Source: a bacterium UBA2214 (GTDB lineage Bacteria; Zhuqueibacterota; Zhuqueibacteria; Residuimicrobiales; Residuimicrobiaceae). Taken from it: a stretch of 47,554 nt of DNA. This document shows, in pieces, positions 11,766 to 39,849 of the stretch (positions are counted from its first letter, which is position 1; every line of letters begins with the position of its first letter). A program made the position numbers and the translations under genes. Location: the NCBI GenBank assembly GCA_002327255.1, contig DCUM01000073.1, positions 1 through 47,554 of the forward strand, in the 5' to 3' direction. The notes under the pieces are model-generated. The model was not told the DNA's origin. It made no database searches and worked only from the letters and a program-made list of their open reading frames with translations.

Positions 11766-12698
11766 TCACGCTTCATCGGCGCGCGGATGCGCCTGCTTGT
11801 AAATGCGACGCAGGTGTTCGGCGGAGACATGCGTATAGACTTGCGTCGTTGAAAGGCTGCTATGCCCCAGCAGTTCCTTTACCGAGAGAATATCAGCCCC
11901 TTCATCCAGCAAATGGGTTGCAAAGGTATGCCGCAGGGCATGGGGATGCGCTTTATGGCGATCCGCGACACGGCGCAAATAGCGCTGCAGGAGACGTGCG
12001 AGCTGCTGGCGTGTGAAGGGGGTACCATCATCCCGAAGCAGCAGGAAATCGGCGCCGGCGCCGCTCTGCATCAGCAGATGCTCTCTTTGCGGCAGATAGT
12101 GCCGCAAGGTTTCGATGACCTGGCGGCCCAGCGGCACAATGCGTGTCTTGTCGCGTTTGCCATGCACGCGCAAGGTCCCCTGCCACAATTGCACGTCCTT
12201 GATTTTGAGTCCGGCGGCCTCACTGATTCTAACGCCGGTGGCGTAAAAGAGTTTCAGGGAGAGCAGATCGCGAATACCGGCAAATCGGGTCGTATCCGGC
12301 AGGAGCATAACCTGACGCATTTCGCCCTGGGTCAGGAAAATGGGGAGACGCTTTGGCTGCCGGGGTGAGCGGATGGCGCGTACCGGATTGGTGATGAGAG
12401 CCGATTCCCGCACCAGAAAGCGGGCAAACGCGCGCAAGGTCGCCAGTTTACGCGCTATGGAACGTGCCGCGTAACCTTTTTGCAGAAGCGCGGCGAGATA
12501 ACCGCGCACCGCAGAACGCTCAAAGTATGCCAGTTCGGGATGTTCCGTATCAAAACGATCCGCCAGGTAGAGGATAAACTGCTGCAGGTCGTTCCGGTAT
12601 GCGGACCTGGTATGGCTGGTGTGGTGCTTTTCGATTTCCAGGTAGCGATCGAATCGCAGAACCCAGGTGCAAAGGATATTTTCTGCCGTTACCGTCAT
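11766..12698 (-). CDS. Tyrosine recombinase, XerC/XerD type
   Basis: 310 aa. The catalytic region is HALRHTFATHLLDEGADILSVKELLGHSSLSTTQVYTHV. XerC cannot be told from XerD by eye. Confidence 0.85.
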   Translation of the reverse strand: MTVTAENILCTWVLRFDRYLEIEKHHTSHTRSAYRNDLQQFILYLADRFDTEHPELAYFERSAVRGYLAALLQKGYAARSIARKLATLRAFARFLVRESALITNPVRAIRSPRQPKRLPIFLTQGEMRQVMLLPDTTRFAGIRDLLSLKLFYATGVRISEAAGLKIKDVQLWQGTLRVHGKRDKTRIVPLGRQVIETLRHYLPQREHLLMQSGAGADFLLLRDDGTPFTRQQLARLLQRYLRRVADRHKAHPHALRHTFATHLLDEGADILSVKELLGHSSLSTTQVYTHVSAEHLRRIYKQAHPRADEA

Positions 12699-13386: not shown

Positions 13387-16300
13387 TCAGGCGTTTTTGC
13401 CGCAGCACTGCTTGTATTTTTTGCCGCTGCCGCACGGGCACGGATCGTTGCGACCGACGCGAGCCCCTCTGACCACCGTCGCTGTCCGGGCCGGAGCCGC
13501 TGCAACCGCTGCCGGGCTCTCGGCGTGGCTGCGTGGTGCACCCTGCTTGAACGTTTCCACCTGAGAATGCGTGGTCATAAAATTCTTGGGCTCGATGCGC
13601 CGCATCTGGCGCTCCTCCAATTCGCCACCGACGTCAAAATACTTGAAGAGGGTGGCGACCACGTCACGATTGATGCGATCGATCATCTTGACAAACAGAT
13701 TATAGGCTTCACTTTTGTACTCCAGCAGGGGATCCTTCTGGCCGTAACCCCGCAAGCCGATACCCTCGCGCACCTCATCGGTCGCATTGAGGTGCTGCCG
13801 CCAGTTTTCATCGATTTTTTCCAGGACAAAATAGCGCTCATAGCGCATCGCGCGTTCGCTGCCGAGTTCTTCAATGCGTTTTTGATAAATTTGCCGCGCC
13901 CAGCGATTCAGTTGCGTCATGATTTCATTGGGATCGTAGACCTGGCCGCTGTCGTCGCTGAGACGCGGCGCCTGGCGGAACACCAGACGGCACTCGGACT
14001 CGATGCGGCGCACCTTGCTGCTGTCAAGCTCGGTTTCTCCCTCCATGACGCCGCTGATCATGGCATACACCGTGTCCTCGATCATCATCAGTACCGAATC
14101 GCGCACAATCTCTCCACTCAGCGTCTCCTGGTGGAAGCGTTCTTCGCGTTCGGCATAGGTTTCGTACCATTTCAGCGCCCAGGCGACGATATCCTCGGCA
14201 AACGAGGCGATTTCTGCGCCATCCCGGGTATCGGGCATGGCCTTTGCCGGACGCTGCATGAGGACAAATCCAAGGCGGGATGCCAGATCCGCCTGCTTCT
14301 GCTCGATGGGCGACGGGCCTGCGGCGACGCTCCGGACCATGGCCGTGAGGGCTGCCGCCATGAATTCCTCGATGGAGGCCCGATGCAGCATGGCCTCGAG
14401 ATAGGCATCCCGCTTTTCGTCCATCTGCGTTCGGTATTGAATCGAAAGTTGACGTGAGAGGCGTTCTTCCAGTGGCTCTTCCGATGCCGCCGTCACATCG
14501 GGCAGCGTCACATCCCCAAAGAGGCGATGCAGGAACTTTATCTGGCGCTCATCGAGCCGGTCGGTTCTGCCGCTTCCCAAATCGATGAGGAGATAGCGCA
14601 CCACCACATCGATGAAATTCGCGAGGGAAAAGAATCCCACGATACGATGGCGCATGGCTGAGGCATCGAGATGCGGCAGGCGCTCCCGAATCCAGCTCTG
14701 TATCATCTGCAGCAACTTTTCACGACGAATGGTGCGAATTTCATGGATACCGACGGGGGGCTTGCCGGAGAAGACGCGATCCAGACCGTTGAGAAACTCC
14801 TCGCCTTTCCAGGCGTGCGGTGAAATCTTCTCCGGCAGATACGCTTCCATGAGGCCGCGCAGGTAAACCATCGCCATCTCTTCGGTTTCCAGTTTCAGGA
14901 AGAGGAGGAGATCGAGTCCTTCGCGGTTCCTTGCCACGTGCTCCTGGTAATGCCGGGCGGCCCATTGTACCAGGCGCTGCTCGAGCTCTGCGGCATCGGC
15001 CGGGATGTCCTTTGCCGCCAGCCATTGCGGCGACGTCCCATAGATTCGTTCAAGCTCGTCGCGAATGCCGGTGAGATTCCATTTGGCGGTATCCCGGGTA
15101 CCGGCGCTGTGCAAGCGGATTTTCAGGTGCACCAGTTCTTCCAGCGTCTGCGCAAAGGGCGTATAGCCGAGCAGGCGATGCCGCAGCTGCATCTGACGTT
15201 GCAGCCGTTCCGCCTCAATTTGTTCACCGATCCATTCGATCAGGAGTTCTTTGATCTCTGCAAATTTTAAAGGCTCGAGTTCCTGAACCGTAAAGCCGGT
15301 TTCGTTGTGGAAAAAGGCCTCCAGATTGGCCAGCAGTCCGGCCAGGTCCCATTCCGTGCGTTCGTCTTCTTCGTTAAAATAGCGTTTGGCTTTCGATTCG
15401 ACAAGATCTTCCGGACCGGCGAATCCCAGCAGATTTTGCCGCCGTTTGTAGATGATTTTGCGCTGTTCATTGAGGACGTTGTCGTAATCCAGCAGGTGCT
15501 TGCGAATCTCAAAGTTGCGTTCTTCCACTTTCTTCTGGGCTCTTTCGATGGAACGCGTGATGAGCGGATGTTCAATGCGCTCGTTCTCTTCCATGGGCCC
15601 GAGGCGGCTCATCATGGTGGTGATCCGGTCGGAACCGAACAGGCGCATCAGATCATCTTCCAGCGAGAGGTAGAAGCGCGACGAGCCGGGGTCGCCTTGA
15701 CGGCCGGAGCGGCCGCGCAGCTGGCGGTCGATACGGCGCGCCTCATGTTTTTCGGAACCGATGATGTGCAGTCCGCCGCGCCTGGCCACCTCATGATGAA
15801 GCTTGATGTCCGTGCCGCGGCCTGCCATGTTGGTGGCGATGGTGATGCTGCCGGGCAGACCCGCTTTGGTGACGATCTCCGCTTCCTGGCGGTGGAATTT
15901 GGCGTTCAAAACGGTATGGAAGCGGCCGGATTCCAATTCATGGGTGACATCGCCTTTCTTGAGCCAGTTGGCAATGGGAACGCCGCGCTGCGTCAGCATA
16001 TCGCTGAGCAGCTGGGAGACTTCCACGGAGATGGTGCCGACCAGCACGGAACGTCCCTGTTCATGCATGGAGATGGCTTCTTCGACGATGGCATTGTATT
16101 TCTCTTTCCGGGTGCGGTAAATGACATCGTTTTCATCGTTGCGAATGACCGGTTTATTGGTCGGTATGACCATGACCTCGAGTTTGTAGGTGCTGAAAAA
16201 TTCCTGGGCTTCGGTTTCCGCGGTTCCGGTCATACCCGCCAATTTATCGTAGAGCCTGAAAAAATTCTGGATGGTGATCGTAGCCAGCGTCTGCGACTCG

Positions 16301-19300
16301 GCCTGCACCTCCACGCCTTCCTTGGCTTCGAGGGCTTCGTGCAAACCATCGCTGTAACGGCGGCCCGGCATGAGCCGGCCGGTGAACTGGTCCACAATCA
16401 TGACCGCATTGGCGCCCTTTTTCCCGGAGACGCGTCCGCGCAAGTCGGCATCATCCAGGGCTTTGACGACATAGTCGACGTCGCGATGATAGAGGGTGTA
16501 GGCGCGCAGCAGCTGCGAAATATTCTGCACCCGTTCCTCGATGGCGGTGTACTCTTTCCAGAGGTTGTCGCGCTGCTCTTCAAGGAGGCGGCGCGGTTTG
16601 CGTTCAATATGAATCCGCAGCCAATGTTCGATCTCCTCGCTGGTCAGGGATGTTTTGGCGGAATGGGCTTTAAAAATCAGTTCATTCATTTCGCGGTCAT
16701 CGAGCTGAAAATGTTTGCCGCGCAAATGGGCTTTATCTTTGGCGAGCAGACTCTCGAACTCGGCCTGGGTCGTCGCTTTTTTCGTCGCCAGTAACAGCAC
16801 CTCCTCGCGAAACCGGTGCAGTTCATCGCGATAGGAAAAGAATGGCAGCCCTTCGAGCAGGAGAGCGCGCGCCGTCTTTTTCAGTGCAACCGGGAGGCCG
16901 TGATCGTCGAGAACAAAAAGGAGCTCCTGTTCCAGATCGGGACTGTTGGTGAGATGCAGCAGGCGCTCCCAGATTTGCTGACGCGAAGCGGAAGCGCCGC
17001 GCAGGAGGTTGAGCCCGTTGTCCGATAAACCGAGGAACGCGGTGCTCTCCGGCCTCAATTCATGTGCCGGGGCATCAAACTCAAAGTAGCGATGGAGATG
17101 GCGGCTTTTCTCCACAGCGCTCATATCCGGATTTTCAAACCATTCAAAGATAACCTGCATGGTGCGATGCAGGCGTTCGACCTCCTCAAACTGGCGTGAG
17201 AGACTCGCTACCGGTTGTTCCTGAGGAAATGCGGTGGCGAGAAAATGATCCAGGCTCAGGCGCAACCGGACGGGCGCCCCCCCCAAAGCGGCGGCGTTCT
17301 GCTGTTTCCATTCGCTTATTTTTTCCGCCACTGCAGCAAAGGGAAGGCCCAGCAGCCGATCCAGTTCCGCAGCCGCCAACCCGACATATCGTCCTTGCGG
17401 ATCGAGGTTAAAGATGCGTCCCGCCTGATTTTTTTCGCGACGGAGTTCCTCATCGAGTTGCTGGATGAGAGCGTGTGTTTGCGATGCGTGACCGGAGAGG
17501 ATGGCGGCCGCCTCCGTGGTGAATTGGAAGCGGCGTGTCCCCGGATCGATGCGCCACCAGGTATCGCCTGTGTCGAGCTTGTGGAGTTCATCGACATCGC
17601 GCTCGATCTCTTCAATCGCCATGACGCGTTCGGCGTAATCAAAGCCGCTTTGATTGAGGGTGCGGTCCAGCAGATTCTGGATACCGCGATCGCGTTCTTC
17701 GACCAGGCTGCGGTCCGGAAGGATGTATAAATCCGGGTTGCCGCCCAGCATGGCGATGCGTCCCTTTTCAGCGATGTGACGCGGTATGGCGCCTTTGCCG
17801 GTGAACTCGAAATACTCCTGGCGGCGTTCATCCAGCGTATCTGTGCTCCCGGTTGCCAGCAGTGCCGTCATCTTGCTGATAGCGGGCAGCAGGGAGAGAT
17901 CGCCGTCGAAATGGCGGATCAGGATCGCGGTCACGCCGTCGGGGCGCAGGGCCGTGGGGGCGTTGCTGCTCTTGTCAAGTTCGAACCACAAGCCGGCCCA
18001 TTCGCGGCGAAGCTCGGCTTCGACGCGATTCGCCGCATCGAAGGCATCCATATCCTGCAGCAAATCGGCGTAATTTTGCACCAGTTCCGTATAGAGGGGA
18101 GCGGCATTGCCCGCGAGCAGAAAACGCTTCGCCTCTTCGGTGAGGCCAACCACCATGCGCTCCAGTTTTCTGGAATTAAGGTAATAGTGCCGCCAGGCGG
18201 CGGATTTATCGATTTTTTGCTGCTGGGCGCTTTCCGATACCTGTTGGGCCAGTTGAGCGATACGGGCAGCCAGTGCAGCGGCGGCATCGATCAGCGCCTC
18301 ATCGGCTATTTTCCCGGGTGCGGCCAGCACAACCTGTCCAGCCGGGGTGATGCCGTTGCAGAGACCGCTGACGGGATCCTGGGTATAGAAACGCTGGACA
18401 TTTTTCTGCTCCGCCACAGCGCCGAGGCGTTCATCGAGGCGGTCCAGTAGCTCGATTTTGGCGACGAGGTCCTGATCGCGTCCGCCCGAAAGAAAAATGC
18501 GGCCTTTTTCCGTGATATCAACCACATGCGATTTCTCGTCGATGGTATAATAGAGTTCACCATCGACGCTGCCCATCTCCTTGTTGATTTCGTGTTCACT
18601 TTGGATGCCTTCGATCAATTTTTTGACCCAAAACTCGGAGGTGAGTAATTCGAGGAGCTGGGCATTTTTGGGATCACCGCGGTGTACGCGCAGGAGCGCC
18701 ATGCCGGCAGCCTCTTCGTCCTGCTCCAGCAACTCCTTGCCTTTACGCAGCAGTTCCGCGATCAAATCTTTCTGGCGGCGATAGAGATTGGCGACGATGG
18801 GTTTGAGTTCGTAATAAATGTTGCGCGGTGCGCCCACGGAACCGGAGATGATCAAAGGCGTACGGGACTCATCGATGAGCACACTGTCGACTTCATCAAC
18901 GATGGCATAATTGAGCTTGCGCTGCGCGACGCTCCAGACATCGGTGGCCATGTTGTCGCGCAGATAATCGAAACCGAACTCATTATTGGTGCCATAGGTA
19001 ATATCGGCGTTATAGGCCTGACGGCGTTCTTCCGGCGTCATTTCGCCGTGCAGCGCCGCGGCGGTCAAGCCAAGAAAATCAAATATTTTTCCCATCCATT
19101 CACAGTCGCGTTGGGCGAGATAATCGTTGACGGTGACCAGATGCGCACCTTTGCCGGTCAGTGCATTGAGATAAAGCGGCATGGTGGCGACCAGCGTTTT
19201 GCCTTCGCCCGTTGCCATCTCGGCGATTTTGCCCTGATGCAGGACGACGGCGCCGAGAATCTGGACATCATACGGCACCATATTCCATACGATTTCCTGG

Positions 19301-19651: not shown

Positions 19652-20194
19652 TCAGGATGTTTCGCTGTTTTCCGGGCCATGTCCCTCTTGCAAGCCGCGC
19701 CCGGTTTTAACCAGTTGTTGTGTCTTTTTGAGATCGAGCAGCACCGCATCGAGGATACCGTTGACAAAACGGCCGCTCTGTTCCGTGCTGTAGAGTTTGG
19801 ACATCTCGATAGCCTCATCGATGGAGACCTTGGGCGGGATATCCCAGAAGTAGAGGAACTCACAAATCGCCATGCGCAGAATGATGCGGTCGATGATGGC
19901 GATGCGGTTAAAATCCCAATTGGTGACATGCTTTTTGATATGGGCATCGAGTTCGTCGCAATGAGTTGTGGTCTTTTCCGCCATCTCCTGCACGAATTGG
20001 ACGATGAGCGTGTCTTCCGCGTGGAAAGTCAACACGCTGCGCAGCACCTGAGCGATGGGATCGCCCGATAATTCATGGGCATACAGACCCTGCAAGGCGA
20101 TCTCACGGCCGCGCCGCCGCGATCCAGGCGCGGAGGCGTGATAGATGTCCTCATCTTCGTGAGGGGGATTAGCGGATGTAGTGATGCCAGCCAT
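19652..20194 (-). CDS. nusB: Transcription antitermination factor NusB
   Basis: 180 aa with the motifs [17 protein letters not shown] and [15 protein letters not shown]. Confidence 0.85.
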
Positions 20195-21098
20195 AGATGT
20201 CTTGTGTCTCGCCGTTTAGGTATTCGAAAAAGCGCGTCTGCAGTTTATGGGTGATGGGCCCGCAGCAGCCCGCACCGATCACTTCCCGGTCTATGGAGCG
20301 AATGGGGGTGATTTCAGCGGCCGAACCCGTGAAGAAAACCTCATCCGCGATATAAAGCATTTCGCGTGGAATCTGGGTTTCAACCACCGTGAGTCCCATT
20401 TCATGGGCCAGGGTGATGACGCTCGCCCGGGTGATGCCGATGAGAATGCTGGCGGAACCGGGCGGCGTATAGAGGACGCCGTCACGAACCACGAATACAT
20501 TTTCACCACTGCCTTCACTGATAAATCCGGCGACGTCCAGGGCAATCCCCTCGACATAGCCGTCCGCATTGGCTTCCTGCTTGATGAGCTGGGAATTCAT
20601 ATAGTTGGCGCCCGCTTTGGCCATCGCGGGCATGGTGCTGGGCGCCATTCTGCGCCACGAAGAGATGCGCACATCGACGCCGGTGGCCAGGGCTTCATCG
20701 CCAAGGTATTTGCCCCAATTCAGTGCAGCGACGGCCACATCCACCGGACAGTTGCGCGGATCTACACCCAGGGAAAAGTAACCGCGGTAGACGACGGGGC
20801 GCAGATAAGCCGCATTGAAACCATTCTTCTTGACGACATCGTTGCAGGCCTGTATGATCTCTTCCCGGGAATAGGGTACTTTCATCCGGTATATTTTTGC
20901 CGAGTCAAAGAGGCGCTGAATGTGTTCCTTGAGACGAAAAATCGTCGACCCTTTGGGCGTTTCATAACAGCGAATGCCTTCGAAGACACTGGAGCCATAG
21001 TGCACGACGTGCGACATGACGTGAATTTTTGCATCCTGCCACGGGATGAATTCTCCATTCATCCATATCAGGCTTTTTTCATCTCTCGGATCCATCAT
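20169..21098 (-). CDS. ilvE: Branched-chain-amino-acid aminotransferase
   Basis: 309 aa with the motifs [33 protein letters not shown] and [13 protein letters not shown]. Confidence 0.9.
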
Positions 21099-21159
21099 CG
21101 ACTCCTCTTTGTGCGTACATCATTCATTTCATGGCGCGGCTCGCGGCGGTGGCATGCCA

Positions 21160-22857
21160 TCAGCGTATATCCTTGAGCCGTAATTGTATCATTTTGCGCC
21201 CCATGTATTCATTCTCTTCCAGGAGGTAAGTCAAATCCAGGCCGCGCTCGGTCTGCTGCGTCCGCGGCAGATGAGCGCCCATGCCGAAGCCTATGGCTTC
21301 AAAAACGGCATTCCCTTCGCGCACCTTGAATTTGAGATGATTGCCGCCGACGATGACCGGATTGCCCACGACCTGCAAATTGCGCGACATGAAGACCGGG
21401 CGCATGTTTTGCGGGCCATAGGGGGCGAACATGCGCAACAATTTGATAAACGTCTCATCGATCTCCTGCAGATGCAGTTCCGCCTCGATGGCCAATTTCG
21501 GGATCAGCTGTTCACCATCGAGACGCGCGGCAGCCACCGCCTCGAATCTTTCACAGAAAGCGGGGATATTATTTTCCTCGATGGACAAACCCGCGGCATA
21601 CTTGTGGCCGCCAAATCCGATGAGAAGGTCTTCGCAACTTTTCAGGGCATCATGCAGATCGAACCCCTCGATGCTGCGCGCTGATCCTTTGCCCACGCCA
21701 TTTTCGATGGAGATCAGGACCGTTGGGCGGTAAAATCGCTCGACAACGCGCGAAGCCACGATACCGATCACGCCCGAATGCCATCCGCGTTGATATAAAA
21801 TCAATGCCCTGGTGCGTTCGTCCTGGAATTTCTGTTCGGCCAGTACCAGGGCCTGGCGGAAAGTCTCTTCGTCGACATTTTTGCGGTGACGGTTTTCCTG
21901 TTCGAGGACATTGGCGATCTCCAGTGCTTCAGCGGGGTCGGATGTACTGAGCAGTTTCACGGCGCGCTCGGCGTCTCCCATGCGCCCCACCGCATTGATG
22001 CGTGGTGCCAGGATGAAGACAATATGCCCGGTGCTGATATCCTTGCCGGAGAGTCCGGCGACCTGAAACAACGCCTTGATGCCGAGGTTTTCGCTCTCGT
22101 TGAGGCGATCGAGTCCCGCCTTGACAAAGATACGATTTTCATCGACCAGCGGCACGATGTCAGCCGCCGTGCCGATGGCGACCAGTTCGAGATAATTTTC
22201 GAGAATGGAGAGGTCATATTTCATGCGCAGCAGCAAGCCCTGGCAGAGCTTGTAGGTAACGCCCACACCGGCCAGCTCGCGGAAAGGATAGGGGCAGTCG
22301 TTGCGTTTGGGATCCAGGACAGCCAGTGCATTGGGCAGTGTTGGCCCGGGTTCGTGGTGATCGCTGACCAGCACATCCATGCCCAGACTGCGCGCCAGCT
22401 CGATCTCCGCGTGTCCGGTGATACCACAATCGACGGTGATGATGAGGCCGGTTCCCCGCTCTTTGGCCGCCTCGATGCCCTGGGGCGAGAGGCCGTATCC
22501 CTCCAGTTGGCGATCGGGGATATAGTAGTCGACATTGGCACCGAGTTCCCTGAGGATGAGATAGAGAAAGGAGACGGAGGTGATGCCATCGACATCATAA
22601 TCACCATAGATGAGAATTTTTTCATCGCTCAAGACGGCGCGGCGCAGGCGCTCCACGGCCTGATGCATATCCCGCATGATGAAAGGATCATAGAGAAGAT
22701 CGAGCGAAGGCCGGAAAAATCGTCTTGCGGCGTCAGCATCTGTAATCCCCCTGCGCAGCAACATCTTGGTGATGATTTCGGGAATTCGCAGGCTTTGTGA
22801 TAGTGAATTGACTTCCTGGGATGAAAATTCATCGAGAAGATCCCATCGCAGTTGCAT
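21160..22857 (-). CDS. recJ: Single-stranded-DNA-specific exonuclease RecJ
   Basis: It has the DHH motifs (ILIYGDYDVDGITS; VTVDCG; VSDHH) and a DHHA1 motif (GGHKYAAG). I moved the start to the ATG at 22857 because the longer ORF (to 22983) runs into rnpB. Confidence 0.9.
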   Translation of the reverse strand: MQLRWDLLDEFSSQEVNSLSQSLRIPEIITKMLLRRGITDADAARRFFRPSLDLLYDPFIMRDMHQAVERLRRAVLSDEKILIYGDYDVDGITSVSFLYLILRELGANVDYYIPDRQLEGYGLSPQGIEAAKERGTGLIITVDCGITGHAEIELARSLGMDVLVSDHHEPGPTLPNALAVLDPKRNDCPYPFRELAGVGVTYKLCQGLLLRMKYDLSILENYLELVAIGTAADIVPLVDENRIFVKAGLDRLNESENLGIKALFQVAGLSGKDISTGHIVFILAPRINAVGRMGDAERAVKLLSTSDPAEALEIANVLEQENRHRKNVDEETFRQALVLAEQKFQDERTRALILYQRGWHSGVIGIVASRVVERFYRPTVLISIENGVGKGSARSIEGFDLHDALKSCEDLLIGFGGHKYAAGLSIEENNIPAFCERFEAVAAARLDGEQLIPKLAIEAELHLQEIDETFIKLLRMFAPYGPQNMRPVFMSRNLQVVGNPVIVGGNHLKFKVREGNAVFEAIGFGMGAHLPRTQQTERGLDLTYLLEENEYMGRKMIQLRLKDIR

Positions 22858-22940
22858 CGATTGGCTACTCCGACGATATGGGCAAATTGCGCCGTTGATA
22901 TGGATAAATACATCATTTATTACTGCAGGAAATAATGAAT

Positions 22941-23316
22941 CTCCAAAGCAGGCCTGTAAGCCGAATTCTGTCATCCCGCACATGCGGGAGAGATGATCAT
23001 CTATCTAGGATGCGAGTTGCCCCGCACCTCCAGCGACCTACCCGAGGGTCGAACGAGACGAGCAGCCTCTTCCCTCCTATTTGGTCTTGCTCCGGGTGGG
23101 GTTTACCAGGCTCCTGCTGTCACCAGCAGGACGGTGAGCTCTTACCTCACCCTTTCACCTTAACCCCGGAAGCATCCGGGGATGTCTGCTTTCTGTGGCA
23201 CTTTCCCCGCCTCACGACGGGTCCGCGTTACGGACCACCCTGCTCTGTGGAGTTCGGACTTTCCTCATGCTGGTCTGCCAGGCAGTCAGCACGCGATCAT
23301 CCAGCCTGCTTTGGAG
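22941..23316 (-). ncRNA. rnpB: RNase P RNA, bacterial type A
   Basis: The minus strand reads ...GAGGAAAGTCCGAAC...ACAGAGCAGGGTGGTCCGTAACG...GTTAAGGTGAAAGGGTGAGGTAAGAGCTCACC...GGTAAACCCCACCCGGAGCAAGACCAAATAGG...ACAGAATTCGGCTTACAGG. This can be aligned block by block to E. coli M1 RNA. P1 is formed by CCAAAGCAGGC (5' end) with GCCTGCTTTGG (3' end). The ends are accurate to about +/-5 nt. Confidence 0.9.
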
Positions 23317-33606: not shown

Positions 33607-34668
33607 TCAAAAAGCGAATGAGCCTGAAATCCGATGGGAATTATCCAGTTTATCCGCCACAAACGCATAGTCCACTGCAAAACCGAGAAAGCGCAGGCCG
33701 GCGCCGGCGGTCATATGATCCTGGTGGTAACCGCCGCGCAAACTGATGGCGTTGAAAAAATCGAGTTCAGCGCCGGCAAAGTTACCCTCTGTGTTCCAAA
33801 AGGCTCTGTCATAGGCGATGGTAATGCGGGTACGCCAGAACGCCAGCAGGTGTGAGGCGGCGACGCCCGTCACCAGGCCGCGCTCTATTTCATCTTTGTG
33901 CCGGGAATCGGTGTTCCAGCTCAATTGTGTCCTGGACAGATCGCGGATGACGGCGCCGGCGCCGAACCAGGTGCGCGGATCGGGCTCATCTTCCCAGTTC
34001 GGCATGACGCGTACCAGCACGCCGGCATCGATGCCCTGACCACTTCCGGCATACTGATCCAGTTTCTGGTGTATATACTTTCCGGTGAAGCCAACGGATA
34101 TTTCGGTTGGCAGGTAGACATCCGAGAAACCGCCGGCCATTTCCAGATCCAGGATGATGCTGCGCCGGAAAGAGAGCAGAATGGCGTCCTCCTTGTCGGA
34201 GAAATAGCCGAGGGCTTCTCCGCTGGAGCGGTGCTGACCGAGGATGAGGCGGTCGTAGCGGCTGCCCTCGAGCGCGCCATAGCGCGGGATGTCATCGACG
34301 CCGAGACGAATCCAGTTGAGGCTGATACTGGTGGAATAGTCAAAGGCGAGATGCGCACTCATGCTGTTATACTGTGCCAATCCGGAGAAGAGGGGTACAT
34401 GTTCGAGCTGCACAGCGATGCGGCTGACGCCCGCCCAACCGGCCGGATTCCAATAGGTTGCGCTGGCATCATTGGCAAGCGCCACATAAGCGCCGCCCAT
34501 GGCCATGGGACGCGCGCCAACACCGATGCGCAGGAAATCGGCGGCGTAATCACCCGGTGTCGCCGGGGGGGCCGCCATGAGAAGCAGAAGAAACACTGCT
34601 GCAACTGCCTTGATTGTTATCATCACAAACCTCATCTCCATTCCGTTTGCCCTTTCGAAATCGGTCAT
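33607..34668 (-). CDS. porV: T9SS outer-membrane shuttle protein, PorV/PorQ family
   Basis: A signal peptide is followed by the family motif DFLRIGVGARPMAMGGAYVALANDASATYWNPAG. The composition is beta-barrel-like and the protein ends in F. Its ATGA overlap with porU suggests translational coupling. Confidence 0.8.
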   Translation of the reverse strand: MTDFERANGMEMRFVMITIKAVAAVFLLLLMAAPPATPGDYAADFLRIGVGARPMAMGGAYVALANDASATYWNPAGWAGVSRIAVQLEHVPLFSGLAQYNSMSAHLAFDYSTSISLNWIRLGVDDIPRYGALEGSRYDRLILGQHRSSGEALGYFSDKEDAILLSFRRSIILDLEMAGGFSDVYLPTEISVGFTGKYIHQKLDQYAGSGQGIDAGVLVRVMPNWEDEPDPRTWFGAGAVIRDLSRTQLSWNTDSRHKDEIERGLVTGVAASHLLAFWRTRITIAYDRAFWNTEGNFAGAELDFFNAISLRGGYHQDHMTAGAGLRFLGFAVDYAFVADKLDNSHRISGSFAF

Positions 34669-37600
34669 TGCAGCCTGGCCATCTTTTCAATGCGTTCGAA
34701 CTTTTTCTCCCCGTTCCGCGCCGTAAATCTCAGGTAATAAACACCGTTGGCAACCTGGTTGCCATCTTCGTCACTGCCATCCCAATCCCACTCGTGATAG
34801 CCCGTCACACCCTGCATCGTAACCCGGCGTACCAACCGGCCGGATACCGTATAAATCATCATTTCGACTTCAGTGGCCGTTTCGGTCAACAGGAAGGCAA
34901 TGGTCGTCTCGTGTTGAAACGGATTGGGATGGTTTGCCAGACTGGCCAGACTGAAGGTACCTTCAACCCGGAAGAGCGTTTGCAGGCTGGCGGGATTGCC
35001 GTTAATGTCCCTGATTTCAATCATCAATTCATGTTCTCCGGCTGCGAGCTGCGGGGAATAGGTGAGTGTCATGACATGGCGCGTATCCGCATCCTGGAAG
35101 AGCTTATAGTGCTCTGCCGGCACTTCGACGCCGTCCAACTGCAGGCGCAGACCGGAATCCGCCACATCAAAGCCGCTCTGATCTTCGCATGAGACCGTGA
35201 AAACCGGGCGAGAAGAGACAACGTCTCCGGGGGCATAATTCTGTCCGCTGATACTGACACGGATGACAGGCCCATCGCTATCCTGGCTGGCCAGCAACGA
35301 GAAGCCTTTCATGGCGGACGGCAAATAAGCGCGCAGGGTGCCTTGGGCCGCATCAATGGTCGAGGGCAGTCCGTGCCAGGTATTGGAGGCCTCATTCCAG
35401 GCGTAAATGCGCAGCGTGTTATTCTTCAGCAGCTCTGCAATCTGGGTATCGGAGGCGTCAACCACTGCGACAATTGGAATCGCCTTGCTCAATACCAGTG
35501 TGGAATCGGATAATTTATAGCGGTACAGCAGCGGTTTGGTGGCGTTCTTCAGTTTGACCGGTGTCAGGCCGGAGAGTTCCGCGGCCCGCTTCTGTTCCGC
35601 CTCCCATTTCTGGCTCCAGCTCAAGGACACCGTTTGATTGATCGACCTGGGGGGAATTTCGAGGTAGCCGCTTGCGTCCGGCAAATAGAGCGCTCCTCCT
35701 GTGCCGGCCGATTCCGTCACAAGCCGGGATACGACCAGGGTGATATTGTTACCCTCGTTACTCTCCGTCACCTGCCGATCAACGTCCACCTGAAACCACA
35801 GCTTGGTTTCGCCGGCGGTTGGATCGGGCCATTCGATCGTCATGGTGGTATCCCGTTTGCCGGCGATCGTTGTAATGACCATTTTGTGGCCGATGGCTTG
35901 ATAACTTGATGCGTTGACGCCCTCGGTCACCGTCACAGCAAAAACCCCACTGGCTTTGTCACCGGTATTCCTGATGATAAAAGAGATTTTGGTGGGCTGC
36001 CCCCCCACCTTAACCGACTGAGGCGTAATCGACAGATCGGGACGGTATCCGATCTGGATCGTCGTGATATCGCCAACCAGTTGTTCGTTGGTGCCCGTAG
36101 TGACCAGTGTCTGGTATTGTACCGTTGCGCCTTCAATCTGCTGAACGGGTTCGGTCGTTCTCCAGACTCCGCTGGCCTGCTTGACGAGATTATAGCGCTG
36201 CCAGTTTTTGCGGTCCGGGGTGATGTTCATCTGTACCAGCTTTACGCCTCCCATTTCACCCAATGATGACTCGTCGACAGTGATATTGAAATAGAGATAA
36301 TCATTGTGGGTTGGTCTGGCGGGATCCATGGTCACCAAAATCGCAGCGATCGGATTGATCGATATTTCAGCCACATTGGCGGCATCGTTTTGGTCATCGC
36401 GGGCAAAGACGCGGATATACGCCTTGCCCTGCTGGCTTTTCCAGGCTTTGATGTTCTCTTCGCTGATGGTGTAGAGATCGCAGGAATAGGCGCCACCCTG
36501 CACGACGGCTTCCTTGCTGACCAGCAACGAATCGCGGTCGTTAGACAAGGTGACCGTGACCGTCCCCTGTTGGACATGAGCGGCCTTTCCCGTGACGCGG
36601 ATGGACTCTCCCGGCCGATAGGCAGATTTGCCGGGCTGAACCGTGACATCCGCAGCGGATAAATAATAGGGCAATGCGGGATCGCCGAGGAGAATGAAAT
36701 GGCGCACCTGATCCCAATAGCCATTGGTATTGGCAATGAGCAAAATTTTGCCCAATGTCGTGATTTCGCCGACGCGGCGGCGGTTTTCTTTATACATCGC
36801 ATCAAACAGGGCAATATTGAGGTAGTAATCACCATCGGCCGTCGCCCGCCCGGCAGAACCAAAGTGCGCAACGGCGCCCTTGTCCACCGCCAGCACCAGT
36901 TCTTCGCCCAGGGAATCCATTTCGGGATTATCAAAATGGCCGACAAAACAGGTCAGACTGAAAACCAGGGGATATCTGTTTTTATTGTGCAGCCGTGCAA
37001 TATCTTCAATCTGGAACAATTCGTTGTCAAAGTAAACACCCCCACCGCCATGGCCGATAAAATTGAGCAGCGTTTGTCCACGATTGATCATATCCGCAAG
37101 ATCCTGCGTCGCGCCAAAATAGGGTGAGGTCGGTTGTGTCGTCAGACGGTTCACCCAAACCCGTTTCGGCGTATACTTGTTGATCAATTCCTCGGCATCA
37201 TTGATGAAGCGGGAGCCGTCCGCGTAAACCATGGCGATATTGCGGCGCCAGCTGTCAATGATGGAGTGATCCTGATAGTTGAGCGTCTTGTTGACCATAT
37301 TTTCAGCCTGCTGCACCGTGCTGACGGGAAAGCGCCCGACGTAAAGATCGGGCAGAATATCGTTACCGCTCACCGCTACAAAAGCATTGTCTGAAGAGGT
37401 CATACCCCACGAACCCGTGAAAACCATCAAGGCGGGAATGAAGGTGGGCATGAAAGTTTTCTTGCCGGTTCCCTTGACGATACTGCGTTTGTTCATATAA
37501 TGGGTTGTATCGCCAAAAAGGAGAATATAGAGAGGCGCCGGTTTGGACCAATGATGATAGGCATAGGCAATGAAATCGCGAATGGCATTGGGATCATAAA

Positions 37601-39521
37601 TGCCGAAATTGAACTCATCATAGATGTCCTGCACATCGACGACCATGGTGCGCATGCCTTCGCTGTTGCGGCGCTGTGCCAGACGCTGTGCCTGGTTGAT
37701 AAAATCCTTATGTGAAATGATAATATAGTCGGCGCTCTGGGCGCTGTTTTTCAACGCAGAGGGTGCGTCCAGTGTGATGCTGGCCACGCGTGACAGGCGA
37801 TTCTCGCCGAGTATATACATTTTGCGACTGGTCGTGGCATGGAGGCTGAGGTAACAGGTGTAAGAGCTTTTTTCGCGTTTGATGGCAAAGCCCTTCAGCA
37901 GGTGTCCCTCCTCCGTGAATGCGTAAAGCCGGTCGCTGCTGAAGCCCTCGATGCGCACCGGGGCCATGGTTGCGGGCGGCAGTGTAAAGCGGATGGAATC
38001 TTTTTGGGCGATCAGCTTGCCGCTGTAGCCCAGCTCTATATAATTAACCAAAATTTTGTCCACATTGACCCCAGGCAAATCCAGGGGTAGTTTGATATTG
38101 AGCGTGTTGCCCGTCGTCGCAATCGGCGGTGCGTCGATGGTTTTGTCAAAAGTATATTGCGTCTGATTATCCCAGATGGCATCACCGACCGCCTGACCAT
38201 TAATGAAGAATCTGGCGTGATGGTCGGGATTGGCCTGATAGATATGGGTCAAGCCGAGCATGTCAATTTTTAATCTCAGCGGCGTATGCGGCAGCGCATT
38301 ATCCAGGGGCAGAGGCGTTGAAAAATCGTAATCATTCGACGCAGAACCCCAATACCAGCGGTCGAGGGTTAAATCGCTGTTTTCCAGGGTTCGTTCGTAG
38401 AGGTTGTCGTATTCCAGGTGCAGAGAAAAATCGCCATGCGTCAGGGTATCTGCTGCCGGAAAAGCGGGAGAAACATCCGTCTCTGCGAAACGGCTTCCGG
38501 TTGTGCCATCCACTTGCAGAAAGTAGATATTGAGATCGGAATATTGCGAGAAATAATGGTTGTTCGAGCTGTTGTGCTTGCCAATGAAGAGGATGCGATC
38601 ATCCGGATCGAGGCGGCCATCACTCGCGCCTTCGACCTGGATAGCCACGCTCTTGCCGCGGTTATACATGGCGAGCGCCTGGGGCGAAATGGAAGCCAGT
38701 GACAGTCCGGCCGCTTCGAGTTCCCGGCCGCTGATGGCATAGACGCCGTCATACTCCACCGCGATGCGGAGTTGCGTGACCGCCGCGGCAACTGCATTTC
38801 TGGCCAAAGCCGGGGCTGTTTGCGCCTGCCCGCGCCATTTTTTTGCTTCGCCATAGTTGGCCAGTGTCGCCTGCAGCATGTTCTCGAACTCGAGCCGCTC
38901 TGCGGCCGGACTCGTCTGTCTGGCCAGAGTGGATTCGGCACTCTTTTCATTGATATTAAAATCGATCCGGAAGCGAAGGCTGCGGGTGATGTGCAGCATT
39001 TGTTGCGCATGCAAATAACGCACCGGGTTCAGCTGCACCTGGACGATGCGCTGACTGCGGATGAAACCGTCCATCGCCAACTCTGCATTTGCAGAGGGGT
39101 ACCATCCCTCGATTTCCTGCAAGGGGAGAAGGGCTGCTTCTTCCTCTGCATTCAGCCCCGGGGCATAGACAGGCTTCCCGGCGAGACGCAGGGCGCCGCT
39201 CTGCCTCACGATGCTCTTTTCCTGCAGGATGGAAAAGTGCGCCTGGCCGGCAGCGGGGATACCGAGCAGAATGCCGGTCACCGGAAGTCTGGGCAACAGA
39301 TAACGATCGCTGTAGCTGCAGCCCGGCAAGGTTATGTCTGAAACCCACTGTCCATCCATCAACCGCTGCACGGTGCGCACAGAGTCGAAAACCACTTCGC
39401 CGATGAGGTAGCGATCGGTGCTCTCCAGCGTGGTATACTGATAGGGCTTTGTAGACGCGGCGAATCCGGTTTGCAGGCTCCCTAAAAGCAACATGGCCAA
39501 AATCCAAGATGCCCTCTTCAT
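34665..39521 (-). CDS. porU: T9SS C-terminal signal peptidase/sortase PorU-like (peptidase C25 family), enlarged
   Basis: The start is an ATG at 39521 after AAGGAG, with signal peptide MKRASWILAMLLLGSLQTGFAAS. The C25 core is DYIIISHKDF...VDVQDIYDEFNFGIYDPNAIRDFI. The His (LNFIGHGGGG) and Cys (LVFSLTCFVGHF) of the dyad are present. Ig-like repeats follow, then a C-terminal FlgD-Ig/Por sorting domain (NHPNPFQHETTIAF...WDWDGSDEDGNQVANGVYYLRF). Confidence 0.8.
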   Translation of the reverse strand: MKRASWILAMLLLGSLQTGFAASTKPYQYTTLESTDRYLIGEVVFDSVRTVQRLMDGQWVSDITLPGCSYSDRYLLPRLPVTGILLGIPAAGQAHFSILQEKSIVRQSGALRLAGKPVYAPGLNAEEEAALLPLQEIEGWYPSANAELAMDGFIRSQRIVQVQLNPVRYLHAQQMLHITRSLRFRIDFNINEKSAESTLARQTSPAAERLEFENMLQATLANYGEAKKWRGQAQTAPALARNAVAAAVTQLRIAVEYDGVYAISGRELEAAGLSLASISPQALAMYNRGKSVAIQVEGASDGRLDPDDRILFIGKHNSSNNHYFSQYSDLNIYFLQVDGTTGSRFAETDVSPAFPAADTLTHGDFSLHLEYDNLYERTLENSDLTLDRWYWGSASNDYDFSTPLPLDNALPHTPLRLKIDMLGLTHIYQANPDHHARFFINGQAVGDAIWDNQTQYTFDKTIDAPPIATTGNTLNIKLPLDLPGVNVDKILVNYIELGYSGKLIAQKDSIRFTLPPATMAPVRIEGFSSDRLYAFTEEGHLLKGFAIKREKSSYTCYLSLHATTSRKMYILGENRLSRVASITLDAPSALKNSAQSADYIIISHKDFINQAQRLAQRRNSEGMRTMVVDVQDIYDEFNFGIYDPNAIRDFIAYAYHHWSKPAPLYILLFGDTTHYMNKRSIVKGTGKKTFMPTFIPALMVFTGSWGMTSSDNAFVAVSGNDILPDLYVGRFPVSTVQQAENMVNKTLNYQDHSIIDSWRRNIAMVYADGSRFINDAEELINKYTPKRVWVNRLTTQPTSPYFGATQDLADMINRGQTLLNFIGHGGGGVYFDNELFQIEDIARLHNKNRYPLVFSLTCFVGHFDNPEMDSLGEELVLAVDKGAVAHFGSAGRATADGDYYLNIALFDAMYKENRRRVGEITTLGKILLIANTNGYWDQVRHFILLGDPALPYYLSAADVTVQPGKSAYRPGESIRVTGKAAHVQQGTVTVTLSNDRDSLLVSKEAVVQGGAYSCDLYTISEENIKAWKSQQGKAYIRVFARDDQNDAANVAEISINPIAAILVTMDPARPTHNDYLYFNITVDESSLGEMGGVKLVQMNITPDRKNWQRYNLVKQASGVWRTTEPVQQIEGATVQYQTLVTTGTNEQLVGDITTIQIGYRPDLSITPQSVKVGGQPTKISFIIRNTGDKASGVFAVTVTEGVNASSYQAIGHKMVITTIAGKRDTTMTIEWPDPTAGETKLWFQVDVDRQVTESNEGNNITLVVSRLVTESAGTGGALYLPDASGYLEIPPRSINQTVSLSWSQKWEAEQKRAAELSGLTPVKLKNATKPLLYRYKLSDSTLVLSKAIPIVAVVDASDTQIAELLKNNTLRIYAWNEASNTWHGLPSTIDAAQGTLRAYLPSAMKGFSLLASQDSDGPVIRVSISGQNYAPGDVVSSRPVFTVSCEDQSGFDVADSGLRLQLDGVEVPAEHYKLFQDADTRHVMTLTYSPQLAAGEHELMIEIRDINGNPASLQTLFRVEGTFSLASLANHPNPFQHETTIAFLLTETATEVEMMIYTVSGRLVRRVTMQGVTGYHEWDWDGSDEDGNQVANGVYYLRFTARNGEKKFERIEKMARLQ

Positions 39522-39588
39522 GCCGTCTCCTTTCATTCGCCTCTGATCGTCCCGTCGTTCACAGCTGCTGTATTTCACGAAACACCCA

Positions 39589-39849
39589 TTATTTTTCAGT
39601 TGGTCGTTGTATGTCATTCAATAAATCCATGCTCAAATCCGCCAGCCGCCTGGCATAATAGCTGACCCGCTCGAGAAGATGAACTTCTTCGGGCTGGAGA
39701 CGCGACGCGACTTCATCCTGATAGATACTGAGATAGCCCAGCAAGCCCTGAACCGTGGATCGCAGTTCGTGTCCAAGACGGCGCTGTTGTGCCGCGCGTG
39801 AAATTTCATGCTCCGCCGCATGATTATTTTCTTGCCTCACTTCCGTCAC
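39589..39849 (-). CDS. DHp (HisKA)-only mini-protein with H-box and no ATPase domain
   Basis: 86 aa from the GTG at 39849 (GGAG 9 nt upstream, 5 nt after the preceding stop). The H-box is RRLGHELRSTVQGLLGYLSIY. The frame has no ATG start. Confidence 0.4.
   Translation of the reverse strand: MTEVRQENNHAAEHEISRAAQQRRLGHELRSTVQGLLGYLSIYQDEVASRLQPEEVHLLERVSYYARRLADLSMDLLNDIQRPTEK

Follow-up and report, generated by a model that had tools for sequence, protein, structure and literature searches.

The giant secA gene and its product

Bacterium UBA2214 (Zhuqueibacterota; GenBank assembly GCA_002327255.1) carries on contig DCUM01000073.1 a secA gene for a protein of 2,061 amino acids (aa), more than twice the usual SecA length. 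We analyzed positions 1 to 47,554 of this contig, a 47,554-nt stretch that we refer to as the window, and we focus here on the preprotein-crosslinking domain (PPXD) of this giant SecA, which is enlarged by an array of repeated modules, and on a second array in its helical wing domain (HWD). Few bacterial machines are as conserved or have been studied as closely as SecA, yet what its moving parts, the PPXD and the wing, do in substrate capture is still debated.

The giant SecA has the same motor as the canonical SecAs of E. coli and B. subtilis (PDB 2fsf, 1tf5, and 1m6n): two domains for nucleotide binding (NBD1 and NBD2), the stem and bulb of the PPXD, the helical scaffold domain (HSD), the HWD, the two-helix finger, and the zinc tail. 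Pfam models for SecA_DEAD (PF07517; 398 bits, E = 2.6e-119), P-loop_SecA (PF21090; 232 bits), SecA_SW (PF07516; 200 bits), and SEC-C (PF02810; 38 bits) all matched the open reading frame (ORF), and SecA_PP_bind (PF01043) matched residues 980-1082 with 74.2 bits (cutoff 23.5). Pfam, NCBIfam, and PDB searches place NBD1 at residues 14-292, the PPXD C-terminal half at 980-1082, NBD2 from 1141 onward, the scaffold and wing domains at 1815-1977, and the SEC-C zinc motif at 2041-2059. The Walker A motif MATGEGKT and the DEVD motif are legible in the translation and align with B. subtilis SecA, and the two-helix-finger and zinc motifs likewise align with solved SecA chains. Among PDB sequences, B. 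subtilis SecA matched with E = 4e-203; it aligns in three blocks, one of which covers residues 1017-1427, and leaves residues ~290-1016 and ~1428-1879 unmatched. Full-length SecA chains matched in the PDB are 778-997 aa long, less than half the length of the giant. Altogether, the gene encodes a SecA motor of a KSB1-lineage bacterium that is complete and apparently functional. Relative to B. subtilis SecA, NBD2 also has a 19-aa insertion (residues 1200-1218; window 15919-15975, reverse strand) that is conserved throughout the giant clade.

We next considered what kind of SecA this is. The protein passes two SecA equivalog cutoffs in NCBIfam (PRK12904, 961.2 bits against 814; TIGR00963, 913.1 against 800). 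The model for the long SecA of Bacteroidota type (NF009536/PRK12901) matched in four stretches with 1,065.6 bits and did not reach its cutoff of 1,493; going by these scores, the giant is related to the PRK12901 type and is not a member of it by the NCBI criterion. It could also be an accessory, SecA2-like paralogue that serves special cargo, with a normal-sized housekeeping SecA elsewhere in the genomes. Accessory SecAs are known from other phyla, and the window does encode a 1,650-aa cargo-like protein with a C25 peptidase domain. However, in addition to passing the equivalog cutoffs, the giant falls under the cutoff of every SecA2 model (TIGR03714, 646 bits against 930; TIGR04221, 525 against 725; TIGR04397, 746 against 1,085; NF012136, 551 against 1,100), and it keeps the SEC-C tail. 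Its gene also stands in a conserved housekeeping neighborhood (recJ, an ilvE-like gene, nusB, and secA), and its core is under extreme constraint, with a ratio of nonsynonymous to synonymous substitution rates (dN/dS) of 0.02-0.05. We therefore regard an accessory role as unlikely. Like the giant, the SecA2 proteins of Gram-positives and mycobacteria are variants of SecA confined to particular lineages, and their clamp and wing regions are altered. They are shortened, however, with a reduced HWD and C-terminal tail, whereas the giant is enlarged and retains its tail.

The repeat array in the PPXD bulb

The largest departure from other SecAs lies between two PPXD landmarks, the LTExG motif, which ends at residue 357, and the DVDY strand, which starts at residue 1029. 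These are 672 aa apart in the giant and 665-709 aa apart in 38 giant orthologues. In 29 of the nearest ordinary SecAs, which are 1,133-1,233 aa long and of the type found in the Fibrobacteres-Chlorobi-Bacteroidetes (FCB) group, the distance ranges from 67 to 194 aa, with a median of 100 aa. Canonical SecAs have a single hairpin-helix ~45 aa before DVDY, where the giant has nine modules. The initial annotation of this DNA proposed an insertion of ~650 aa at window positions 16513-18480 (residues 365-1020). Every peptide that it quoted is found at its residues in the 2,061-aa ORF, and the size is correct relative to E. coli; ~640 aa lie within the PPXD bulb, and the net gain relative to the closest ordinary relatives is ~570 aa. 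The insert is rich in Ala and Leu, mildly acidic, and soluble by charge and hydropathy, which says nothing on function.

Profile comparison and predicted structure both confirmed that eight diverged copies of one module fill the insert and that the canonical bulb hairpin is the ninth. The module is ~50-70 aa long. It opens with a beta-hairpin in which aromatic-aromatic-x-x-D and G-L-T/S are separated by a turn, continues with a short helix of the pattern x-x-G-x-x-x-L-x-G, and closes with a longer helix. Its anchors fall at residues 341 (the canonical unit), 395, 463, 529, 587, 672, 720, 829, and 885, and we number the units 1 to 9 in this order (Table 1). Extra helices follow units 5 and 7. 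Unit 1 corresponds to the ordinary bulb hairpin-helix, which reads YTYDIKTKAVQLTEEG in B. subtilis.

Table 1. Positions of the secA gene, its PPXD repeat units, and its wing array in the window, with supporting evidence; P values are from hhalign, and structural elements are from AlphaFold2 (AF2) models.
Feature	Residues	Window positions	Strand	Evidence	AF2 elements
secA ORF	2,061 aa	13387..19572	-	Single unbroken ORF; all canonical SecA domains intact	
PPXD N-terminal part, FCB-type, single copy	241-340	18553..18852	-	Alignment with orthologues and Rhodothermus-type SecAs	
Insert proper, eight repeat units and C-terminal helical linker	366-1002	16567..18477	-	Dot-plot, hhalign, AF2, spacing	
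Unit 1, canonical bulb hairpin-helix	341-394	18391..18552	-	Canonical FCB profile, P=4.5e-11 (P0072 positions 406-439)	Strands 342-344 and 351-353, helix 355-361
Unit 2	395-462	18187..18390	-	P=8.3e-10 vs unit 1 (49 columns)	Hairpin 396-408, helices 410-417 and 425-452
Unit 3	463-528	17989..18186	-	P=1.7e-7 vs unit 2 (62 columns), 6.7e-6 vs unit 1, 2.2e-7 vs unit 8; best match on canonical profile at bulb helix, P=3.8e-3	Hairpin-helix
Unit 4	529-586	17815..17988	-	P=7e-8 vs unit 2, 4.6e-8 vs unit 5	Hairpin 530-542
Unit 5, best-conserved copy, ancestral flank kept	587-671	17560..17814	-	Canonical FCB profile, P=5.5e-6; P=3.4e-7 vs unit 1	
Unit 6	672-719	17416..17559	-	P=1.9e-6 vs unit 1, 9.5e-6 vs unit 3; canonical profile 410-442, P=3.2e-3; AF2	
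Unit 7, plus ~70 aa of extra helices to 828	720-~760	17089..17415	-	P=1.7e-5 vs unit 9 (62 columns)	Hairpin 721-732, helices 734-741 and 745-758
Unit 8, hairpin with longer loop	829-884	16921..17088	-	P=2.2e-7 vs unit 3, 5.4e-5 vs unit 2	Strands 830-832 and 846-849, helices 851-858 and 860-875
Unit 9	885-935	16768..16920	-	P=1.7e-5 vs unit 7, 2e-4 vs unit 4	Hairpin 886-897, helices 899-905 and 914-929
Helical linker (~70 aa), leads into canonical long helix	936-1002	16567..16767	-	Joined to none of the units by hhalign (P>=0.08)	Helices only: 936-952, 959-970, start of long helix 978-1028
Canonical PPXD C-half (long helix, DVDYVV strand, substrate-contact loop region), single copy	1003-1090	16303..16566	-	Pfam 980-1082; B. 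subtilis alignment 1017-1427	
Wing array, six ~90-aa copies of HWD module	~1400-1930	13783..15375	-	hhalign, dot-plot	

The repeats were examined in three independent tests and by structure prediction. A profile dot-plot over orthologue columns, with 22-mer windows and a column-shuffle null, gave its top off-diagonal match between residues 345 and 592 with a score of 40.0 (z ~7.6), compared to a null with mean 18.7, standard deviation 2.8, and maximum 28.2. Ranks 2-10 each exceeded the mean null score of the same rank, and the top pairs join units in register (530/588, 592/889, 350/474, 395/529, 720/885, and 341/672). Second, we compared the units with each other by hhalign, using unit profiles built from an alignment of 46 giant SecA sequences: 12 pairs reached P<1e-4 and 17 reached P<1e-3, all in register and at the hairpin rather than the helices. 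Controls gave lowest P values of 8.7e-4 (45 reversed templates) and 1.6e-3 (135 column-shuffled), so that none of the 180 reached P<1e-4. AF2 prediction of residues 330-1045 (716 residues) from 49 sequences placed strand-strand-helix elements at all nine anchors (342, 396, 464, 530, 588, 673, 721, 830, and 886). The mean predicted local distance difference test score (pLDDT) was 87, with 494 of the 716 residues at or above 90 and most of the insert at 85-97. A shallow run with seven sequences (pLDDT 68) returned the same eight hairpin-helix elements in the insert, with the canonical hairpin unfolded (pLDDT <50). Profile comparison shows homology among the copies at the level of sequence, and the models show that they share one predicted fold. 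The predicted template modeling score (pTM) of 0.69 for a chain of 716 residues argues, indirectly, for the array being a defined, packed, largely rigid body rather than loose beads on a string; as a high-confidence prediction, this would be a new repeat architecture with no structural neighbor in the PDB.

The serial internal duplication of a degenerate bulb hairpin-helix that the initial annotation proposed is thus supported by dot-plot, hhalign, and AF2 alike, including an in-register self-dot-plot signal above the shuffle null and a predicted hairpin-helix at each of the nine anchors. Its list of copies included one false copy and missed two. Six of its seven copies were borne out. The seventh, the tentatively listed HFQLDD segment (residues 954-967), has no link to any unit (all P>=0.08 by hhalign) and is a plain helix in AF2, while the units at 395 and 529 had been overlooked. 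With HFQLDD removed and these two added, the count becomes eight in the insert plus the canonical one.

The third test compared each unit with a canonical SecA profile of 1,136 positions built from 74 non-giant FCB-type SecAs. Units 1, 5, 3, and 6 have their best match at the bulb hairpin (P values in Table 1); unit 4 lands there too, without significance. In the opposite direction, a hidden Markov model of the eight insert units, with unit 1 excluded, was run on 68 non-giant SecAs, and in 43 of them its best match fell on the canonical hairpin. Scores were low (maximum 7.0 bits on non-giant SecAs compared to 1.8 on reversed or shuffled targets).

Several results weigh against this interpretation. 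For units 2, 7, 8, and 9, no significant match leads directly to canonical SecA, and they are joined to it via other units only. Weakest of all is the tie between the main cluster and units 7 and 9, whose P value of 2e-4 improves on the lowest control value (8.7e-4) by no more than a few-fold. Searched against PDB sequences, a profile of the seven most degenerate units retrieved no SecA, only non-significant MarR and cytochrome matches. The Pfam PPXD model, run on ten segments of 55-80 aa at E values up to 10, matched no extra unit; this is an insensitive test, and on an isolated fragment the same model found the canonical hairpin only (residues 328-358) with E=0.084. Foldseek comparison of the whole AF2 models with the PDB returned neither the SecA PPXD nor any other fold (best E 0.3 and 0.7), and pTM is only an indirect pointer to the rigidity of the array.

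These results bear on whether the insert is instead an unrelated captured domain or repeat, e.g., a winged-helix-like "wing + LTxxG helix," that was amplified in the PPXD and came to resemble the bulb by convergence. The weak MarR wing-helix matches of the most degenerate units (E ~0.7), where SecA was not retrieved, and the four units without a direct canonical match would fit such an origin. But unit 1, the canonical hairpin itself, matches unit 2 with P=8e-10 over 49 columns and units 3, 5, and 6 with P values of 1e-5 to 1e-7, and unit 5 bears the ancestral FVLPD flank of FCB-type SecAs. The MarR matches are not significant, and no unrelated family claims the region: neither a Pfam family, nor a non-giant cluster representative, nor a PDB fold searched with Foldseek matches the insert. 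Capture of a foreign domain is therefore improbable. An intein or mobile-element insertion was also considered and rejected, as no Pfam family, Hint and endonuclease domains included, matched any of ten insert segments and the DNA has no tandem or long direct repeats.

Chance or compositional likeness among amphipathic helices, with the insert as a low-constraint spacer, is less probable still and is already largely refuted. The low identity of the copies to one another, a rate of evolution 4-8 times faster in the insert than in the core, and the Ala/Leu-rich composition of the insert speak for this reading; however, the shuffled and reversed controls never came near the observed scores, the matches are in register at the hairpin, AF2 predicts beta-hairpins at the motif positions with pLDDT >90, and the dN/dS of ~0.2 together with fixed spacing in 46 sequences indicates constraint.

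The wing array is a second insertion of ~450 aa in the same SecA, with five copies beyond the usual one and the motif W-[DN]-L-x-G-L. The copies, H1 to H6, are linked by hhalign (H1-H3, P=2.5e-17; H2-H4, 2e-12; H1-H2, 2.4e-10; H2-H6, 5.8e-9). On the canonical HWD, H2 and H6 fall at positions 876-999.

Distribution, age, and origin of the arrays

A full-length search yielded 44 clusters of giant SecAs (2,049-2,111 aa, 53-80% identity); those that are named belong to candidate division KSB1 or are labeled "bacterium." A full-length giant secA is present in three GTDB species genomes. The search found no proteins of intermediate length: below the giants, scores fall directly to SecAs of 1,133-1,233 aa, and the two matches of intermediate length are truncated giants (P0059 aligned in full to residues 1-1427, and P0060 is partial according to its source). 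We also searched 1.84 billion cluster representatives with an insert-only profile, which covered the first ~470 insert positions since partial sequences thinned the C-terminal columns. It matched seven proteins, all pieces of giant SecAs, and no ordinary SecA or other family. In the literature on KSB1/Zhuqueibacterota SecA, PPXD duplication or insertion, and giant SecAs we found no such protein described, which is not proof of absence.

Two entries, P0004 (794 aa, on a 552-kb contig, with an out-of-frame-looking tail SGCRTGCSRT) and P0059 (1,429 aa), are giant secA genes called as truncated proteins. These could be frameshifts or assembly errors in metagenome-assembled genomes, or real pseudogenes. 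Such truncated or frameshifted entries are what might be said for the great length being an assembly or gene-calling artefact (a chimeric contig, a read-through fusion, or collapsed repeats), an idea to which we give practically no credence, given an unbroken ORF with canonical SecA segments flanking each insert, the recurrence of this architecture in 44 clusters drawn from assemblies made independently (NCBI, JGI, ENA, and Logan), with contigs of up to 2.4 Mb, and no DNA repeats able to mislead an assembler.

The spacing of the anchors differs by only a few residues over the 46 giant sequences. Because it is nearly constant, all copies are older than the clade, and this comparison of orthologues, by which the initial annotation suggested that the duplications be timed, shows the whole arrangement, as read from the aligned proteins, to have been fixed before the giant SecAs radiated. 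At the DNA level, we found no tandem or direct repeats. The dN/dS ratios are 0.18-0.22 for the insert and 0.02-0.08 for the core, both approximations, as dS comes close to saturation. The insert evolves faster than the core yet is clearly constrained, and the arrangement is kept by purifying selection.

The nearest non-giant relatives are the long SecAs of FCB type (PRK12901-like), which score up to ~967 bits, with two Rhodothermus entries at 890-891. SecAs of this type, such as that of Rhodothermus marinus (1,136 aa, P0072), share three features with the giant: the extended N-terminal half of the PPXD, a "G.D.DFFVLPD" motif that follows the hairpin helix, and, at the same bulb tip, an insertion made of helix. 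They differ in having one hairpin module and a helical segment of ~100 aa, whereas the giant has eight extra modules; the giant, for its part, lacks the N-terminal NBD1 insertion present in the Rhodothermus SecA.

This comparison suggests where the array began. The nearest ordinary SecAs have one "YFALDEK..LTEKG..G.D.DFFVLPD" element followed by ~100 aa of helix. In the giant, unit 1 retains the ancestral upstream (N-terminal) context, and unit 5, which aligns with this FCB-type element, retains the ancestral downstream flank "GxxDxFVLPD"; the canonical alignment extends across the flank, and the unit and flank are nearly invariant among giants. Farther on, residues 620-646 resemble the helix of the canonical C-half (P=2.3e-4). 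Since copy 1 has the upstream context and copy 5 the flank, the array grew from within a single FCB-type bulb element, at the distal tip of the bulb. One bulb module of ~50-70 aa was serially duplicated within the gene, anciently, to give nine tandem copies. We consider it likely that the giant is a complete SecA with two mobile domains enlarged by ancient serial internal duplication, and its structural and evolutionary description as given here is, if anything, somewhat more secure.

One other SecA in our searches has a comparable change. P0069, a 1,166-aa metagenomic SecA, has a tandem duplication of a 128-aa PPXD bulb block that includes the hairpin (35% identity, E=7e-24). Like the array of the giant, this is a tandem duplication within the PPXD bulb; unlike it, there is a single extra copy, the block has other boundaries and takes in the helices that precede the hairpin, divergence between the copies is far smaller, and the event is independent. 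The bulb thus tolerates such duplication. In P0071 and P0090 (1,194 and 1,195 aa), the PPXD spans 384 aa and has an extra hairpin-like segment, FKVRVERDGKRIDLAPETKRML. As candidate one-unit intermediates we rejected these two, as the similarity of the extra segment to the giant units is not significant (P>=0.008).

Possible function and gene neighborhood

In a structure of substrate-engaged SecA-SecY, the polypeptide chain is held by the two beta-strands of the stem between NBD1 and PPXD, a loop of the PPXD at residues 314-325 in B. subtilis, and the 326-331 segment (PMC6599042). Our B. subtilis alignment pairs DVDYVV at ~306-311 with residues 1031-1036 of the giant, which places the contact loop downstream of the insert. 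The stem strands, the contact loop, and the 326-331 segment all lie outside the duplicated block and are single-copy in the giant SecA. Thus, where the initial annotation described the duplicated part as the clamp element that contacts substrates, the copied block is instead the distal bulb hairpin and its following helices, and not the chain-contacting elements (PMC6599042).

The ATPase, stem strands, contact loop, and two-helix finger would then work as in an ordinary SecA. Because one protein has both its PPXD and its wing domain amplified, we tentatively read the two arrays as large rigid outgrowths of the mobile domains on either side of the clamp, which may add surface to hold unfolded clients or dock partners; we regard this as a modest possibility. 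Slightly more doubtful is the further idea that the nine-module PPXD array and the six-module wing array jointly form a new rigid platform for holding, anti-folding, or partner docking. If such a platform were real, client capture and feeding by the Sec motor would be altered in this lineage, e.g., for very large secreted proteins of FCB bacteria, and this SecA would operate in a mode unlike that of any studied system.

Whatever its use, the protein is a SecA beyond doubt. For its two repeat arrays, which are specific to this lineage, we found no description and no structural neighbor in the PDB. Selection has kept, clade-wide, a SecA in which the PPXD bulb module is present nine-fold and the wing module six-fold on an almost unchanged ATPase core. 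This makes the giant a natural experiment for learning the roles of the surfaces of bulb and wing, and a clean case of an essential protein more than doubling by internal module duplication. Annotation of giant SecAs needs attention as well, given that source databases currently label them "hypothetical," "SEC-C domain-containing," "DEAD/DEAH box helicase," or plain SecA.

The gene order around secA, namely recJ, an Aminotran_4 gene (ilvE-like), nusB, secA, and a xerC-like gene (window 11766-12698 and 19652-22983), is common to the window and a 2.45-Mb KSB1-type contig. On the latter, DUF494 and topA lie between secA and xerC; neither is at that place in the window. Within the G+C-rich secA, the ORFs at 15307-16794, 17215-17730, and 17776-18450 on the forward strand and at 17316-17831 on the reverse strand, in another frame, are overlapping shadow ORFs and not separate genes. 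The 1,650-aa protein mentioned above, encoded at 34665-39617 on the reverse strand, combines a gingipain-like Peptidase_C25 domain (300 bits) with CARDB and, at the C-terminus, FlgD_ig. It probably belongs with the large secreted proteases that FCB bacteria export.

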